DNA of 64,000 bases from Candidatus Thorarchaeota archaeon (GTDB lineage Archaea; Asgardarchaeota; Thorarchaeia; Thorarchaeales; Thorarchaeaceae). Positions 45,727 through 51,242 of the stretch are shown here, piece after piece; position 1 is the first letter of the stretch, and every line of letters starts with the position of its first letter. The notes beneath the pieces are model-generated. The model was not told where the DNA came from and did no database searches. It saw only the letters and a program-made list of their open reading frames with translations. The stretch covers positions 1 to 64,000 of the forward strand of contig JBHLQH010000007.1 of assembly GCA_048884965.1 (NCBI GenBank). Reading direction: 5' to 3'. The position numbers and the translations under genes were made by a program.

Positions 45727-46308
45727 TTATTGTACTGGCTGGGTCATAGCACTTGATCGCATCGCATCATGGAATAGTATTTCGAATGCTTCTAATACGT
45801 TTAGACCATTCATCGCGACACTTCTAATGACAGGTATGGCTGATGGAAGTTTGAGATGGTTTCTAAGTCGATTTTCATCAACTGCATTCGGTAAATCCTG
45901 CTTATTTAGGCAAACGACAATTGGAAGTGGTCGCTCTTCATCAGAAATCAATGTCATTAGTTCGTTCCAACTAGCAAGGTTCTCATCTATGAGATTTTCT
46001 TGGGAATCTGCGACAAATATGACACCGTCAGCACCAACAAGTACAACCTCTCGAGTCGAGCGATAGAAGTCCTGTCCGGTTGCAGACCAGATGTGAGCGT
46101 TAATTGTCCAGCTGTCACCAAGTGCGAATGGAATGGTGCCGAAGTCACAGAACATTGTACGCCCAACGGTATTCTCAATTGAAGTTAGCCGATCTGCACA
46201 ATCAAGACTTTTGAAGAGCCATTGAATAGAAGTGGTTTTTCCACTCATAGCTGGTCCAAAGAATACTATCTTCAATCCTACAGTTCTGTTTCCGTAATCT
46301 ACTATCAC
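45727..46308 (-). CDS. MglA/Arf-like small GTPase
   Basis: G1 GPAMSGKTT, GRTMFCDF, G3 variant SATGQ, G4 NKQD, G5 SVA. Confidence 0.9.
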   Translation of the reverse strand: MIVDYGNRTVGLKIVFFGPAMSGKTTSIQWLFKSLDCADRLTSIENTVGRTMFCDFGTIPFALGDSWTINAHIWSATGQDFYRSTREVVLVGADGVIFVADSQENLIDENLASWNELMTLISDEERPLPIVVCLNKQDLPNAVDENRLRNHLKLPSAIPVIRSVAMNGLNVLEAFEILFHDAMRSSAMTQPVQ

Positions 46309-46322
46309 TAAGCGTTACCCTC

Positions 46323-47243
46323 CTATGCGCCCCACATACTGTCAACCCATGCTCCCAAACCGGATAGAGTTCCTAGCTTTACACAGTCTGAGAAATCTTC
46401 ATGCCATTCAGCGTGGATAAACCTGATTAAATCTTCAAGGTCGCCTCCGTCCCACCCAATAGCTTCGTATAGATTACGTTCAGTCAGTACTGTAGAGGTG
46501 CCTAATTCTCTTGCTAGGCGGATACGGGAGAGAAGTGTTACTGCTCTGCGTGCGGCATGTACGAAATTGTTGATTTCTTCCTCGAACATGTCTTGGGTGA
46601 TTTTTTCGGATTCGTCATCGAGTTTGAGTACTGCATTGATTATCCCGTCAGATACTTTTGCACCTCTCAAGGATTTGCTCAATAGCCTGCGGATTCGTTC
46701 TAGAGATTGTGTCTTTCTTGTAAGAATTTTGTTTACGATTCGTTTTTCTACTTCAAGATTGCTTTCAATTGCGTTGACTAATTCGAAGTTCATGGATGAG
46801 GGAGATACCAACTCAAGAATTCCACATGATCTTGATGTCTGTGTGATATGTGTGATGACTTCGTCTAATTGAGACTTACTAACGTAGATTCCTTTCGATT
46901 CATTTGAAAGGGGAACGCCAATGATCCATCCTGAGAAGTGCTTGATTCTTTCTAGGGCTAATCTAAGATTTGGAGCAAGGCTACAAACGACGGTTCGATT
47001 GACCTCGTAGTTATGTTTCTCCTCTTCCCACACTGAGAGAATTTCATCTTCAGAGGTAAAGTCTCTCCAAAAGACCATCTTATGACGATGGGAGCTCAAA
47101 GAAGCGATGCTTTCGACTAGATCGTCTATGAGTTCGATATCAATCCCTGTAACAAGGATTGGAATGCGTTTCATAACTGAATTCAGTAGTAGGGAAAAGT
47201 CACTTTCCAATAGTTCAGTAAGTCGTAGTATGGAATAACTCAT
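46323..47243 (-). CDS. Hypothetical protein, putative DENN-core-like domain
   Basis: LLLNSVMKRIPILVTG.D.ELIDDLVESIASL resembles the cDENN helix-strand-helix pattern; located between roadblock and GTPase genes. The ORF is solid, the fold call tentative. Confidence 0.55.
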   Translation of the reverse strand: MSYSILRLTELLESDFSLLLNSVMKRIPILVTGIDIELIDDLVESIASLSSHRHKMVFWRDFTSEDEILSVWEEEKHNYEVNRTVVCSLAPNLRLALERIKHFSGWIIGVPLSNESKGIYVSKSQLDEVITHITQTSRSCGILELVSPSSMNFELVNAIESNLEVEKRIVNKILTRKTQSLERIRRLLSKSLRGAKVSDGIINAVLKLDDESEKITQDMFEEEINNFVHAARRAVTLLSRIRLARELGTSTVLTERNLYEAIGWDGGDLEDLIRFIHAEWHEDFSDCVKLGTLSGLGAWVDSMWGA

Positions 47244-48253
47244 GTGTTTCGCCTCGCTAGAAGAAGGTCCTTCTTTGGCCTTTCGGATAATATCAATTCT
47301 CGCAAATCTTGAGGAAGTCCAGGTTTCGCAACTGTAGCAGAACTCAGCACTCGTTGTGTTTCTGTAATGTAATGCTTGAGCAAGAGTCTCATAAGACCCA
47401 GTTTTTGAGAATCGCGTTTCACCCAGAGACTGAAAACACCATTGGGTACAGCATAGATGAAATGGCGGGTTTTCTCAGTTTCACATAGAACGGTGTGTAG
47501 AGAGCTATTCCTCAAGGTTCTTACTACCCGTTCTGATGCATCATGTAGCGCGAAGGACATAGCAGCCAATCGATCATTTGTGAATCCCTCCAAAGATACC
47601 CTTACTCCTCCACTTAGAGAGAGGAACACCGATTCTATATTGGGAATACTATCATGTATCTGACGCAAAATAGAACGAAGGGCAAGAGCTTGAGAACGAT
47701 CAAGTGATAGCATCGAACGCGATGTGGAATACGTTGGAACGTTGCCATCGACAACTGCGAATCCGCGTAGTACCTGTTGAGTTTCTTCTGAGCTATAAGA
47801 TCGGAGAGGTGGTAGTCTTCCGTCTACATGTTGACGCAATAGATAGGAAACACGTGCCATACTCTCACGCATCTCAATGAAAAGCGCAGCTAAATTCACC
47901 CTAGGAGCTGTTGTTATCGTTAGAAAGTATTCAGGATTATTTGGAAGAGATGCAAGGAAAACCTTTGATGTTTCTGATTCCATCAGTAGGTAATTGAAAT
48001 CACCATGAATTAACCTTGCAACACCAAAGATAGCACACGTTGAAGATGCTACAGCAAATACCTCTTCTTTGCTAAACCAAACACCAGCACTTGCAACAGG
48101 TAGTCCATCCTTCTGGATTAAGACCACATTCTCAACTCCAGTGATGGTCTTTATGTTCTGCAAGGCTTCATTAAGATCGTCCGTCAAAGACTCAGCTCCG
48201 AATCTGAATTGATTCAAAGATAAATCCCGGAATTGAGTATATAATCTCCCCAA
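47240..48253 (-). CDS. Tandem roadblock/LC7 (MglB-like) domain protein
   Basis: Domain 1 LNEALQNI..GVENVVLIQKDGLPVAS..PRVNLAALFIEMR; domain 2 LRSILRQI..NIESVFLSLSGG..QKLGLMRLLL. Confidence 0.85.
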   Translation of the reverse strand: MGRLYTQFRDLSLNQFRFGAESLTDDLNEALQNIKTITGVENVVLIQKDGLPVASAGVWFSKEEVFAVASSTCAIFGVARLIHGDFNYLLMESETSKVFLASLPNNPEYFLTITTAPRVNLAALFIEMRESMARVSYLLRQHVDGRLPPLRSYSSEETQQVLRGFAVVDGNVPTYSTSRSMLSLDRSQALALRSILRQIHDSIPNIESVFLSLSGGVRVSLEGFTNDRLAAMSFALHDASERVVRTLRNSSLHTVLCETEKTRHFIYAVPNGVFSLWVKRDSQKLGLMRLLLKHYITETQRVLSSATVAKPGLPQDLRELILSERPKKDLLLARRNT

Positions 48254-48290: not shown

Positions 48291-49586
48291 CTACATATGT
48301 ATCAAAGCTGCATCAGGAACTTCTTGAAAGATTTCTCTAGCGGCGCGTCCAACTTTTGCTCTATGACGGTCATAGGTATACACCCTAATCACATCCAGAT
48401 ACACTTTCATCATTTGGGCAATGTTTGAGAACTCGGATAGATTTCGCTGAACTCTTTTGCCCTCAATCACCTCAAAGATACTAATTTCCATTGGATCAAT
48501 TTGATGAGGATTATATGGAACTGAAGGAAGAGTTGGTACATCAACAATTACCTCATCTGCGGGTACCTTAGCGATAGATGCTATCTCATCTTGAATGCTC
48601 TCACGGACTCGTTTCTTCGTAAGAACCTTGGACACAAAGCGGTCTTCGGTATGCAATACTTTCTCAAAGGCAGATTTGTAAAGAACTCTAGAATCGAGCA
48701 TATTCATCATTGTTGACGCTTCTCTTGCATCATCAGATTCAGTGGGGTCTATCCTTCGAATTCGCGAAACCAATGACATATCATCCAGAGCTAGAAACTC
48801 CTCGGGAGTGGAAAAAGCTGTCAAATTAAGAACTCTATCGGCTGCAGAAATTAGCTTGATTAACATCACTTCAACACTGCGAACTGTTTTATGATAATAC
48901 ACATTCAAAAACATCTCATATCGTGCAACAAGAAATGACTCTAAAGCGCCTCTTGCCGCTAGATCAAAGTGCATTTCATAATCCTTTGAAATTTCGATAC
49001 TTGCTATTAGACGGTGAATATCTACAAGTCCATAGTTGACACCACAGTAAAAGGAATCTCGTATCAAATAATCCATTTTGTCAGAATCTACTTGTCCGGC
49101 AACAATACCACTAACGACACTATCCTTTTCTTTTTTCCTCCGGCCTCGCACCAAATCTGCAATTCTGTTTTTATCAATCCCACCGTCTTCTATTATTTCC
49201 CCTACAATGCTCTCCTTGATTATCCATTCTGTAACGTCTTCGTGATTCTTACCTTGTCGTTCAATCAAAGGTTCCTCAAAGACATGGCTGAATGGCCCGT
49301 GGCCCAAATCGTGAAGTAGACCTGCCAGTCTTACTTCTTGCAATACATCTTCTCCGAAACCAATCTGTCCAAGAAGCCTTCTTCCAACTAAGCCAGCTAA
49401 ATACATGGCACCGATACAGTGCCCAAAGCGGGTATGCTCTGCAGTAGGATAGACATAGTGTGCTCCAGATAGTTGCTTGATTCTTCTCAATCGTTGGTAT
49501 GGCTCAGAATTGATTATCTTTGCTTCCAAATCCGTCAAACCGATGAAACCGTGTACAGGGTCGTTTATTTCCATATTAAAGTCCAC
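48291..49586 (-). CDS. HD-domain phosphohydrolase (dNTP triphosphohydrolase/SAMHD1-like)
   Basis: DPVHG, QRLRRIKQL, HTRF.H, LLHDLGHGPFSH, DKMDYL.RD, VYYHK. Confidence 0.92.
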   Translation of the reverse strand: MDFNMEINDPVHGFIGLTDLEAKIINSEPYQRLRRIKQLSGAHYVYPTAEHTRFGHCIGAMYLAGLVGRRLLGQIGFGEDVLQEVRLAGLLHDLGHGPFSHVFEEPLIERQGKNHEDVTEWIIKESIVGEIIEDGGIDKNRIADLVRGRRKKEKDSVVSGIVAGQVDSDKMDYLIRDSFYCGVNYGLVDIHRLIASIEISKDYEMHFDLAARGALESFLVARYEMFLNVYYHKTVRSVEVMLIKLISAADRVLNLTAFSTPEEFLALDDMSLVSRIRRIDPTESDDAREASTMMNMLDSRVLYKSAFEKVLHTEDRFVSKVLTKKRVRESIQDEIASIAKVPADEVIVDVPTLPSVPYNPHQIDPMEISIFEVIEGKRVQRNLSEFSNIAQMMKVYLDVIRVYTYDRHRAKVGRAAREIFQEVPDAALIHM

Positions 49587-49608: not shown

Positions 49609-50349
49609 TTATGGAGGGTCGAATGTTCTTAGCTCCTTTATTAGCTCATTAGGATTTTGTATACTCGAAACGCACAAAGGAATATGGATACTATCTGCGA
49701 TTTTAACAGCTAAGGGGTCCAATTCGTTCACACCCTGTAGGATTACAACAGCAGGCTTTACTGCTACAGATGTGCCTATCTGACTCGCCTTTATCGCAAC
49801 CATAGGAGACCTTCCTGTGGTAACATTGGTCAAGATAGCAGCTCTTTGAGTTGTACCTCCATATAGTCTAAGCAATTGTTGAGGAGTGAGAGTTACGATT
49901 GCCTTCACACTATCTAATGCTGTATATCCGTAAATATCTCGATCCAACAGACTTTTGTGAGTTAATACCTTGCAATCCAGTTTTTCGACTAGAAATCGTG
50001 CAGGAATAGGAACACCAAATTCACGGCTATCCAAAATGGCCTCTGAAGCAATCTCGGGAGTGACGAGCTTCTCCAATGCCATTGCAATCCTCCCACCATT
50101 TGCTGCATCCATTTCAATAAGACCCTCTACAAAACGTTTGATGGTTTCCACCCGTGGAGATTTGCGTCTGCCACTCTCATAGTCGCTTATCACTGAGGGC
50201 GATACATCAAGATGCTTTGCCAAATCCTTCTGGGAAATTTGAAAGCGCTCACGCCAACGTTTCATCACAGCGCCAGGATCATTCTCCGAAAGGCAAATTT
50301 CCCCAGCCATATTCTCTGCTAGTCTTTGGATTGCCTCACTTTGGTCCAT
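49609..50349 (-). CDS. Archaeal XRE-HTH transcriptional regulator (COG1709-like)
   Basis: AGEICLS..PG, SPSVISDYESGRRKSP, GYTALDS, TNVTTGRSPMVAI. Confidence 0.85.
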   Translation of the reverse strand: MDQSEAIQRLAENMAGEICLSENDPGAVMKRWRERFQISQKDLAKHLDVSPSVISDYESGRRKSPRVETIKRFVEGLIEMDAANGGRIAMALEKLVTPEIASEAILDSREFGVPIPARFLVEKLDCKVLTHKSLLDRDIYGYTALDSVKAIVTLTPQQLLRLYGGTTQRAAILTNVTTGRSPMVAIKASQIGTSVAVKPAVVILQGVNELDPLAVKIADSIHIPLCVSSIQNPNELIKELRTFDPP

Positions 50350-50477
50350 GGGATGAAAATTCTCTGTTTACTGATAAGACTTGTTGCAATACCGTCATCA
50401 TAATTCGTCAAGTGACGAAAATATGCTTTGCTGGATGTACCAAAGAACTCAAAGCGCATCGTATTCTCTTTTTCTCT

Positions 50478-51242
50478 ATGTTCTTCATGTTCGTTGTTGG
50501 TACTGCAGGTTCTGGAAAATCCCTTCTTACATCATCTTTGGAGGAATGGCTGGTTTCTTCTGAGATCAGTGTTTCAGTGGTCAATCTTGATCCAGGTGTA
50601 GAATCGCCTCCGTATACCTCTGATGTGGATATTCGAAGCTATGTTGATTATGGAGAAATTATGCAGCAATTTAGTCTTGGCCCAAATGGTGCCTTGGTTG
50701 CGTCACTTGATATGGCGGTAGGGCATGTTAATGATATCCGAGAAGAGATAAATGATCTTGGACGTGATTATGTCATTGTCGACTGCCCAGGTCAAATGGA
50801 ACTCTTTGCGTACCGCAATTCGGGGCCCCTAATGGTTTCTGGACTGAGAGGGAAAAATTCAGCATTGTCGCTATACTTACTCGATTCTAATATTGCAAGA
50901 GTGCCTTCGGGATATCTTTCTTCTTTGCTACTAGGAATGTCTATCAATATTCGCTTTGGGTTGCCTCAACTCAATTTGTTAAGTAAGACAGATATCCTAT
51001 CTGAAGATGAGGTTGAGGAGATAATAGATTGGTCAACTGACCCCTATCTTTTAGAAGAAGCGCTAGATGCTTCCTCAAGTGGGCTTGTCCGAGAGTTTTC
51101 TTCATCGATTCTAAGAATGCTAGAGGACATTGGTGACGGCCCAAGTGTCATTCCGATTTCAGGAAAACAAGTCACAGGCTTTGAAACACTCTATGGTGAA
51201 TTTCAACGAATCTTTCTAGGTGGAGATAATCTATACGAGTGA
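50478..51242 (+). CDS. GPN-loop GTPase (probable start at 50478)
   Basis: GTAGSGKS, NLDPG, LGPNG, DCPGQMELF, SKTD. Confidence 0.92.
   Translation: MFFMFVVGTAGSGKSLLTSSLEEWLVSSEISVSVVNLDPGVESPPYTSDVDIRSYVDYGEIMQQFSLGPNGALVASLDMAVGHVNDIREEINDLGRDYVIVDCPGQMELFAYRNSGPLMVSGLRGKNSALSLYLLDSNIARVPSGYLSSLLLGMSINIRFGLPQLNLLSKTDILSEDEVEEIIDWSTDPYLLEEALDASSSGLVREFSSSILRMLEDIGDGPSVIPISGKQVTGFETLYGEFQRIFLGGDNLYE

Follow-up and report, generated by a model that had tools for sequence, protein, structure and literature searches.

A Thorarchaeota gene cassette encoding a tandem Roadblock protein, a predicted DENN-fold protein and an MglA-type small GTPase

In eukaryotes, DENN proteins, Roadblock/longin platforms and small GTPases run nutrient signalling as well as membrane traffic. 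In the MglA-MglB switch, the MglB homodimer binds a single MglA in an asymmetric way. It was proposed by Zhang et al. (2012, PMC3521125) that the longin domain of DENN modules derives from MglB-like Roadblock GAPs of MglA. Among MglA proteins, Group 1 is recognized by an intrinsic arginine finger located beside the conserved threonine of G2 (Wuichet & Sogaard-Andersen 2014, PMC4316618), and groups named 'MglA1' and 'MglA2-5' have been reported in Asgard archaea (bioRxiv 10.1101/2024.02.28.582541).

According to Liu et al. (bioRxiv 10.1101/2020.10.19.343400; Nature 2021), most Asgard archaea share a putative operon that associates a Roadblock protein, a small GTPase and a DENN protein, the GTPase being labelled 'Rab-like' and the Roadblock protein 'LAMTOR1-like'. 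This operon type is already known as a prediction from that work (2020/21), to which the significance of the module is credited. What the cassette described below adds to it is a GTPase that appears to be a Group-1-like MglA, a diverged tandem Roadblock protein with an MglB-like N-terminal domain and a location in a conserved core region.

The cassette lies on the minus strand of the window, i.e., the whole stretch of 64,000 nucleotides analysed here. It consists of three ORFs of 337, 306 and 193 aa, hereafter RB2, MID and GTP, whose features are the following:

47240..48253, minus strand: gene 1 (RB2), tandem-Roadblock protein, longest ORF 337 aa (Robl_LC7 and AF2 model)
47828..48172, minus strand: N-terminal Roadblock domain of RB2, residues 28-142, MglB-like, the more conserved half
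47342..47698, minus strand: C-terminal Roadblock domain of RB2, residues 186-304, a diverged copy with Roadblock topology in the model
47240..47243, minus strand: ATGA in which the stop of RB2 overlaps the start of MID (the DENN-fold gene), read from the sequence
46323..47243, minus strand: gene 2 (MID), 306-aa protein of predicted DENN/folliculin fold, devoid of longin/uDENN (AF2, Foldseek and VIA-align)
46764..47243, minus strand: cDENN-like alpha/beta three-layer domain of MID, residues 1-160 (secondary structure of the model and family alignment)
46332..46754, minus strand: dDENN-like all-helical domain of MID, residues 164-304 (model)
46309..46322, minus strand: 14-nt spacer GAGGGTAACGCTTA preceding the GTG start of the GTPase gene, read from the sequence
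45727..46308, minus strand: gene 3 (GTP), 193-aa small GTPase of MglA type, Group-1-like (phmmer against PDB)
46234..46257, minus strand: G1 P-loop GPAMSGKT, invariant in 19 orthologues
46156..46161, minus strand: R50-T51, arginine adjoining the G2 threonine, aligned to DRT of M. xanthus MglA and invariant in 19 orthologues
46072..46086, minus strand: G3 motif SATGQ, with Ser75 in place of the canonical Asp and the catalytic Gln79, aligned to TVPGQ of MglA
45895..45906, minus strand: G4 motif NKQD, read from the sequence and the 19-orthologue alignment

The initial annotation had described co-directional genes, the first two overlapping by ATGA (47240-47243) and the next one following after a gap of 14 nt, and both junctions are indeed read directly in the sequence. 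The overlap is predicted to couple translation of RB2 and MID; a -4 junction between these genes is likewise found in most of the loci compared. The spacer GAGGGTAACGCTTA includes a Shine-Dalgarno-like GAGG located before the GTG start of the GTPase gene. RB2 probably starts not at position 48253 but at 48187, with a TTG codon and a length of about 315 aa, since the homologues of the family start there, the profile match runs from 48193 and the pLDDT of the model is below 50 over residues 1-18.

Comparison with PDB sequences (phmmer) relates the GTPase to MglA from M. xanthus (8.4e-29, 103.6 bits) and T. thermophilus (1.6e-27), the next-best match being Arl10C (2.9e-8, 36.6 bits) and those to Arl, Rab and Arf proteins all lying around 3e-8. 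In Pfam, only the generic Arf, Roc and Ras families are matched. Within G3, S/T75, T77 and G78 are conserved in the 19 orthologues and Q79 is invariant; NKxD of G4 is also kept among them. By alignment, R50 is at the position of the intrinsic arginine finger of MglA. As judged from its sequence, the GTPase shows all the hallmarks of Group-1 MglA (arginine finger, Ser/Thr replacing the Asp of G3, and Gln) and can be called Group-1-like. The MglA-like features that had been noticed at first sight, GRTMFCDF, SATGQ and NKQD, are all present, and the score of 103.6 bits to MglA versus about 36 bits to Arf/Rab upholds this assignment.

RB2 matches the Pfam family Robl_LC7 with 40.4 bits (cut-off 23; 2.5e-10) over two stretches, and its AF2 model (pLDDT 75.4, pTM 0.72) contains two domains with an alpha-beta-beta-alpha-beta-beta-beta-alpha topology, whose mutual arrangement is suggested by the pTM to be a defined one. 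The N-terminal and C-terminal halves are homologous to each other (hhalign E 5.9e-5 over 114 columns). Joined to the structural matches of each domain, this agrees with the two roadblock domains that had been attributed to the protein. In VIA-align, the N-terminal domain finds its best match in MglB of M. xanthus (6hjm_A, Z 12.3, rmsd 2.0 A, 123 aligned residues), and the Asgard Roadblock3 9jue is matched with Z 11.8. This domain carries an invariant QxDGxP hairpin (residues 47-52), the invariant residues being G39, V40, Q47, D49, G50, P52, G57, W59 and E64. Its mean majority frequency is 0.61 versus 0.475 for the C-terminal domain. The latter matches dynein LC7/roadblock (Z about 7.1) and Mon1-Ccz1 (Z about 7.2), and PDB 7yh1_D matches residues 210-293 of RB2. 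Among single PDB chains, none was found that has an MglB-like side-by-side packing and aligns with low rmsd across both RB2 domains.

The AF2 model of MID has a pLDDT of 90.4 and a pTM of 0.86. It begins with the cDENN-like domain, and the chain includes no longin/uDENN domain. When this model was compared with 48,161 chains by VIA-align, ranks 1-6 were all occupied by DENN-family proteins (Z 10.1-13.3), including DENND10 (Z 13.3, 186 aligned residues), FLCN 345-558 (Z 12.9, 188 aligned residues), SMCR8 (Z 11.0), C9orf72 (Z 10.7) and DENND1A (Z 10.1). These alignments involve about 185-205 residues and run from residue 1 of MID to about residues 280-289, i.e., they cover both domains; residue 1 corresponds to position 345 of FLCN, 157 of DENND10 and 170 of DENND1A. 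In the same way, the top Foldseek matches are FLCN (prob 1.00), and the neighbours found in the ESM Atlas by a language-model search are clusters of C9orf72-like, SPA, Folliculin_C and DENND11 proteins. The N-terminus of the middle protein had been read as cDENN-like without a longin domain, which these comparisons bear out.

By sequence, signals are at or below detection. No Pfam or NCBIfam family was found for MID, only sub-threshold noise (Chalcone_2 0.032, RecX 0.07), and no DENN-clan family (DENN, Folliculin_C, C9orf72-like, SPA, etc.) matches the MID of the window at E <= 1. Among 40 relatives of MID, Folliculin_C is matched weakly in three (best 4.8e-4) and DENN in one (0.093), all these matches being below cut-off; Folliculin_C is the sole Pfam family that matches more than two of the 40. 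Neither phmmer nor the family profile detected a DENN protein among PDB sequences; the matches to ferritin (0.002) obtained in the same sequences were discarded, as they fall on a low-complexity helical stretch. Longer relatives that would fuse a Roadblock or longin domain to DENN were searched and none was found, which is weak evidence. In P0131, P0184 and P0186, which are longer members of the family, Pfam finds no additional domain. Throughout the genome, Pfam DENN and Folliculin_C gave nothing above noise, and no DENN-like gene other than MID is detectable in it. In the family alignment, R26 and P28 are invariant and R53, E75, R83 and W106 nearly so. Homology of MID to eukaryotic DENN proteins is suggested by the modelled fold together with weak sequence signals.

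The cassette was also expected to be conserved across Asgard archaea, and this is what was found. In all the 48 loci compared, which belong to at least ten Asgard families, the genes RB2, MID and GTP follow one another in this order on one strand, either overlapping or separated by short gaps, while the flanking genes vary and no other gene is common to all the loci. The grouping of the trio is thus beyond what chance would give. Of 301 Asgard genomes, 169 carry MID and 170 carry RB2, with an identical pattern of families, strong matches being found in 10 of 30 families.

The core region in which the cassette is located is a conserved one, with orc1/cdc6, a specialized TFB and a Tad-like pilus locus nearby. 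In six Asgard families (f1, f3, f9, f12, f24 and f28), synteny is kept between the cassette and the genes of a TFB paralogue and of two ATPases, one TadA-like and the other VirB4/HerA-like, and this pilus/VirB4/HerA cluster with TFB lies within 2-25 kb; in one genome of the Thor family, the cassette directly adjoins the TFB/TadA/VirB4-HerA cluster. Pfam gave no pilus-specific annotation apart from the ATPases among the neighbours of the cassette in f12 and f28. This synteny may simply come from the location of the cassette in a core region that is conserved as such, close to orc1/cdc6 and the rRNA operon. The genes of an HD-domain phosphohydrolase and of a CTP synthase were rejected as functional partners, as they flank the cassette within the Thor family only.

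On balance, it seems probable that the cassette represents, in a Thorarchaeota-type copy, the operon of Roadblock, DENN and small GTPase genes that is conserved in Asgard archaea, and that it encodes a self-contained switch with an MglA/MglB core. One RB2 chain would stand in for the MglB homodimer, bind the GTPase at its switch face, position R50 and Q79 and speed up GTP hydrolysis. The DENN-fold protein MID would bind RB2, the GTPase or both. The Roadblock platform of RB2 and the cDENN and dDENN domains of MID could then make up, from two chains, a counterpart of the tripartite DENN module of eukaryotes, in which MID might act as an exchange factor or as a modulator of GAP activity. In FLCN-FNIP, the DENN domains make no contact with the GTPase; the fold alone therefore implies no direct catalytic role for MID. 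As to what the switch would control, the surrounding genes give a hint: a Tad-like pilus or a secretion machine may be under its spatial control. An archaeal operon in which all three components are separate co-translated genes would be a natural minimal system for the early function of these regulators, and the cassette, as a predicted module, is a good bench target.

Another role can be considered for MID: it would serve the GTP-bound GTPase as effector or adaptor and relay the signal, e.g., to the nearby pilus or secretion machine, RB2 being the sole regulator (GAP, perhaps GEF). This is possible but unlikely. In a study of M. xanthus (PMC13408092), RomRX is reinterpreted as an effector and MglB as a bifunctional protein; the synteny with the TFB paralogue and the TadA-like and VirB4/HerA-like ATPases in six families points in the same direction, and the conserved arginines R26, R53 and R83 of MID may make a binding patch. 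However, that synteny may merely mirror the core region already mentioned, and the strict co-occurrence of RB2 and MID, as well as their ATGA coupling, suits a regulatory heterocomplex. Furthermore, it is established that every characterized DENN module targets the nucleotide state of a GTPase, either as a GEF or within a GAP complex (PMC3521125).

A wider proposal, decidedly speculative and rather doubtful, would see in the Asgard DENN operon essentially a polarity switch of MglA and MglB and not a proto-lysosomal Rag/FLCN or Rab trafficking system. The DENN fold would have begun as a third partner of MglA-MglB that positions or switches a surface machine, the nearby Tad-like pilus and VirB4/HerA system being a candidate, and the eukaryotic tripartite DENN module would have arisen by fusion of adjacent Roadblock and c/dDENN genes.

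The initial annotation had also drawn an analogy with eukaryotic Rag, Ragulator and FLCN, which is the weaker part of its reading and is suggested by Liu et al. as well: the GTPase is of MglA type rather than Rag type and the longin that bears the FLCN arginine is absent. Taken literally, the cassette would be a nutrient-signalling module in which RB2 resembles Ragulator or a heterodimer of Rag C-terminal domains, MID resembles FLCN/FNIP and the GTPase resembles Rag. Such a module is improbable. The RB2 domains do match LAMTOR2/p14 and the Roadblock domains at the C-terminus of Rag (Z 8-10), the best Foldseek matches of MID are FLCN chains within FLCN-FNIP2-Rag-Ragulator complexes, and an FLCN-like role is proposed by Liu et al. 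However, MglB is closer than any other structure to the N-terminal domain of RB2. The GTPase is a single-domain protein of 193 aa, devoid of a C-terminal Roadblock domain, for which Gtr1_RagA stays below its cut-off (21.4 versus 22 bits) and MglA lies about 70 bits above all else. The arginine finger is predicted to be intrinsic to this GTPase, whereas the GAP arginine of FLCN (Arg164-type) sits in the longin that MID lacks. Moreover, Liu et al. themselves give the GTPase of the operon as non-Rag.

Finally, it is very improbable that MID is unrelated to DENN, i.e., a degenerate P-loop or RecA-like ATPase domain with a helical tail whose likeness to DENN is convergent. It is true that many ATPases of the secretion, RecA and AAA+ kinds match residues 1-160 with Z 7-10 and fill the lower Foldseek ranks, and that the MID of the window matches no Pfam DENN family. 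But such look-alikes are expected, since the description of cDENN is that of a minimal alpha/beta sandwich of Rossmann-like type (PMC3521125). Their alignments end at about residue 160, whereas the DENN chains of ranks 1-6 alone span both domains and exceed them by up to about 3 Z units, neither Walker A nor Walker B is found in the sequence of MID or in the family alignment, the independent language-model search gives DENN-clan clusters, and Folliculin_C is alone among Pfam families in matching more than two MID relatives.

With the cassette read as a switch with an MglA/MglB core, its likeness to four described systems can be summarized. With the lysosomal FLCN-FNIP2-Rag-Ragulator complex (PDB 6nzd, 6ulg, 8dhb), which includes the best Foldseek match of MID, it shares the use of Roadblock platforms, whereas it has neither a Rag-type GTPase, nor a longin with a catalytic arginine, nor a second DENN protein. 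As in the eukaryotic tripartite DENN module (uDENN/longin, cDENN and dDENN, as in the Rab35 GEF DENND1A/B, DENND10, FLCN, SMCR8 and C9orf72), a cDENN and dDENN fold is predicted, here for MID, and RB2, the gene that overlaps MID upstream, encodes a Roadblock platform related to longin. However, MID has no longin in its own chain, the RB2 domains have the strand order of roadblock and not of longin, sequence similarity to MID is at or below detection and the partner GTPase is of MglA type, not Rab, Arf or Rag. The cassette agrees with the 2012 proposal that the DENN module arose from MglB-type Roadblock GAPs of MglA.

As in the MglA-MglB switch of M. xanthus and T. thermophilus (PDB 3t1q, 6izw, 6h5b), the Roadblock partner, whose best structural match is MglB, is encoded in one operon with the GTPase. 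The latter aligns end to end with MglA and has the putative intrinsic arginine finger, the Ser/Thr replacing the Asp of G3 and the catalytic Gln. Unlike MglB, this partner is a single chain with two diverged domains and not a homodimer; a DENN-fold gene is moreover inserted between the Roadblock and GTPase genes, and the host is an archaeon.

The operon of Liu et al. likewise associates a Roadblock-superfamily protein, a small non-Rag GTPase and a DENN protein. The GTPase of the cassette scores as Group-1-like MglA and not as Rab-like, and its Roadblock protein is a tandem one whose N-terminal domain is nearest to MglB. By composition and distribution, and because no second DENN-like gene is detectable in the genome, the cassette is very probably the operon that Liu et al. 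describe.

The three co-directional genes described in the initial annotation lie exactly where it placed them, all on the minus strand:

47240-48253, minus strand, tandem-Roadblock protein RB2 (337 aa, longest ORF)
46323-47243, minus strand, middle protein MID (306 aa ORF)
45727-46308, minus strand, small GTPase (193 aa ORF)
47240-47243, minus strand, ATGA overlap common to the RB2 stop and the MID start
14 nt between the MID TAG and the GTPase GTG start, minus strand, spacer GAGGGTAACGCTTA with a Shine-Dalgarno-like GAGG

Both the overlap and the 14-nt gap, also part of that annotation, are read directly in the sequence. The longest RB2 ORF is probably over-extended at its N-terminus, since Thor-family orthologues begin level with the TTG at 48187, the match to the family profile begins at 48193 and the AF2 model is disordered over residues 1-18; together these support TTG 48187 as the start. 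The longest-ORF start at 48253 is itself a TTG overlapping a TATA-like box, 'TTATATAC', which would fall upstream of the gene if RB2 starts at 48187.

MID gave no significant match to Pfam, NCBIfam or PDB sequences. Scanned exhaustively with HMMER, 1.84 billion representatives yielded only 68 clusters; the named ones are Asgard without exception, the closest being "hypothetical proteins" of Candidatus Thorarchaeota MAGs, which makes the host an Asgard archaeon of the Thorarchaeota type. The AF2 model (40-sequence alignment; pLDDT 90.4, pTM 0.86) comprises an alpha/beta domain (residues 1-160) and, C-terminal to it, a helical domain (164-304). In VIA-align comparisons, the highest scores are those of DENND10 (Z 13.3, chain 157-357) and FLCN (Z 12.9, chain 345-558), followed by SMCR8 (Z 11.0, model 1-282), C9orf72 (Z 10.7, model 1-289) and DENND1A (Z 10.1, model 1-279), these three matching over both domains. 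Secretion, RecA and AAA+ ATPases stay below Z 10 and match model residues 1-160 only, and MID has no Walker motifs. The proposed Foldseek comparison with DENN, FLCN and C9orf72 proteins placed FLCN chains (6ulg_L, 3v42, 6nzd_H, 8dhb_J) at the top, with C9orf72, DENND10 and DENND1B lower in the list. Two independent leads agree with these structural matches. The ESM-Atlas feature neighbours are clusters with C9orf72-like, SPA, Folliculin_C/SMCR8_C, DENND11, Avl9 and Afi1 annotations, and Folliculin_C is the sole Pfam family matched by more than two of 40 MID relatives (best 4.8e-4). The alignment places the first residue of MID at FLCN residue 345, which leaves no room for a longin domain. From the model, we conclude that MID has a predicted cDENN+dDENN fold devoid of uDENN, which bears out the longin-less DENN-like protein anticipated from the sequence; the support for homology with DENN proteins is mainly structural.

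Pfam Robl_LC7 matches RB2 in two stretches, and the AF2 model (with 19 orthologues; pLDDT 75.4, pTM 0.72) contains two alpha-beta-beta-alpha-beta-beta-beta-alpha domains (residues 28-142 and 186-304), so that the two Roadblock domains initially reported are both recovered. They are joined by a low-confidence linker containing an invariant PP. Among 48,161 chains, the best structural match of the N-terminal domain is MglB from Myxococcus xanthus (Z 12.3, rmsd 2.0 Å, 123 residues), followed by Asgard Roadblock crystal structures and LAMTOR2, while for the C-terminal domain the matches are dynein LC7 and the longin/roadblock domains of Mon1-Ccz1 (Z about 7). The halves are homologous (hhalign E 5.9e-5) yet unequally conserved, with a mean majority frequency of 0.61 for the N-terminal domain versus 0.475 for the C-terminal one, and the invariant residues, among them those of the QxDGxP hairpin, lie almost entirely in the former. 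At the sequence level, "single-chain pseudo-heterodimer" therefore describes RB2 fairly, the side-by-side packing of the domains being putative. In some RB2 orthologues the match contains a single in-frame stop, TAA in two genomes of the Loki-type family f9 and TGA in four Thor-family genomes (G099:C102:9001-10005 and G077:C125:3123-4127; also G296, G299, G128 and G179). These may correspond to matches running past the true start or stop, to sequencing errors or to pseudogenes.

The motifs GRTMFCDF, SATGQ and NKQD, on which the MglA assignment had been based, are all found in the GTPase. Its Pfam matches are limited to generic small-GTPase families (Arf, Roc, Ras), Gtr1_RagA falling under its cut-off. 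Against PDB sequences, it matches MglA from M. xanthus (8.4e-29, 103.6 bits, residues 3-176 aligned to 4-181) and from Thermus thermophilus (1.6e-27), the next best being Arl, Rab7, Rab11 and Arf1 at about 3e-8 or worse. Across 19 orthologues drawn from distantly related Asgard families, the P-loop, R50-T51 (an Arg adjoining the G2 Thr), D55, S/T75, T77, G78 and Q79 (hence a G3 motif lacking Asp) and N135-K136-x-D138 are invariant or conserved. Group-1 MglA proteins are defined by an intrinsic arginine finger adjoining the G2 Thr and by a distinctive G3 motif, and MglB speeds their hydrolysis by placing the intrinsic Arg and Gln (Wuichet & Sogaard-Andersen, PMC4316618). The match scores and these residues indicate that the GTPase is MglA-type and Group-1-like, as judged from its sequence. 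MglA1 and MglA2-5 groups have already been recognised among Asgard GTPases (bioRxiv 10.1101/2024.02.28.582541). In f9 loci, a second, longer MglA-like GTPase (about 220-250 aa; MglA 6.6e-20 against PDB) is encoded on the other strand, a short way downstream of the GTPase gene of the cassette; no such gene adjoins the cassette in the window. Its positions are:

L032:3023-3718, plus strand
L033:988-1647, plus strand
L040:3084-3839, plus strand
L046:670-1323, plus strand
L047:2960-3649, plus strand
L056:14408-15097, plus strand

The conservation of the cassette across Asgard archaea, suggested as a check, is extensive. Among 301 sampled genomes, MID is matched in 169 and RB2 in 170, with 74/76 and 76/76 in family f1, 57/68 for both in f9, and 15/19 and 19/19 in f12. 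Both are also matched in f2, f3, f6, f8, f15, f24 and f28, and neither in f5 (0/28), f14 or f27. The order RB2-MID-GTPase on one strand is kept in all 48 loci examined, the first junction being usually the same ATGA and the second ranging from small overlaps to gaps of about 25 nt. An all-against-all comparison of 18 distant loci found no fourth gene common to every locus, and the flanking HD-phosphohydrolase and CTP-synthase genes are specific to the Thor family. The upstream neighbours in the window are:

48291-49586, minus strand, HD + HD_assoc_2 phosphohydrolase, directly upstream of the cassette
49609-50349, minus strand, HTH_3 (Xre-type) protein
50154-51242, plus strand, GPN-loop GTPase (Pfam ATP_bind_1, 7.3e-59)

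The first two probably do not belong to the module, because only Thor-family loci (L043, L044, L057) keep them beside it. In the GPN-loop GTPase, the longest ORF includes 113 extra N-terminal residues whose coding sequence overlaps the opposite-strand HTH gene; translation probably starts near residue 100-114. In f9, the start of the 16S rRNA gene lies some 350 nt from RB2 on its upstream side, in divergent orientation (L032:7063-7504, L033:7042-8003; ends of L040 and L047). This accounts for the breaks seen in dozens of f9 assemblies at 0.4-1.1 kb from the cassette. The shared intergenic region has a high AT content and contains conserved blocks.

Past the window end, the same contig carries a TFB paralogue and a pilus-like cluster:

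64872-79723 (L049:872-15723), region with the TFB/pilus-like cluster
70565-71602, divergent TFB paralogue

A gap of 13 nt separates the TFB paralogue from the TadA/T2SSE ATPase gene downstream of it; further on come a pilin-like ORF, genes for Ig-repeat proteins and one for a VirB4/HerA-like ATPase. The TFB paralogue shares 38% identity with a TFB-like gene that Loki-type loci carry about 2.5 kb from the cassette. Where both are on one contig, the TFB-cassette distance is about 2.5 kb in f9, 7.6 kb in f12, 9 kb in f28, 13 kb in f3 and mostly about 22 kb in f1. Exceptions at 64 kb and 870 kb exist, and in some genomes they are on different contigs. TadA-like and VirB4/HerA-like genes occur in the same neighbourhoods, and in one Thor-family genome (G188, L057) the cassette and the pilus-like cluster are immediate neighbours. 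Across six Asgard families (L050-L057), synteny comprises the cassette, the TFB paralogue, the TadA/T2SSE-like and VirB4/HerA-like ATPases and orc1/cdc6. In f12, a tubulin/FtsZ-family gene lies on the opposite strand between the cassette and the TFB-TadA operon (L050:2307-3644 = L034:7307-8644). Bacterial type IV pili are under MglA control, and the linkage could be functional; we regard it as a lead rather than a result. It could also come solely from a conserved origin-proximal core region, since orc1/cdc6, ribosomal protein genes, FtsZ and, in f9, 16S rRNA are nearby. The TFB paralogue is also present in families devoid of the cassette.

The feature is real and its initial reading is supported, and the cassette is already known as a computational prediction. 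Liu et al. (bioRxiv 10.1101/2020.10.19.343400; Nature 2021) place the GTPase of a conserved Asgard operon, made up of Roadblock, small GTPase and DENN genes, outside the Rag family and put the module forward as a candidate FLCN-like GEF. No DENN-like gene other than MID could be detected in this genome, so the cassette is very probably a copy of that operon. The literature search found no bench study of it. The reading with the most support is a switch of the MglA/MglB type that has a DENN-fold protein as its third subunit. RB2 would stand in place of the asymmetric MglB dimer and promote GTP hydrolysis via R50 and Q79 of the GTPase itself, while MID would bind the Roadblock platform, and the two would make up a split DENN-like module that may either exchange nucleotide or tune the GAP. 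The analogy with Rag/Ragulator/FLCN drawn in the initial annotation is weaker, because the GTPase is of another class and the catalytic longin is absent. Zhang et al. 2012 (PMC3521125) had proposed that the DENN longin arose from Roadblock GAPs of MglA that resemble MglB.
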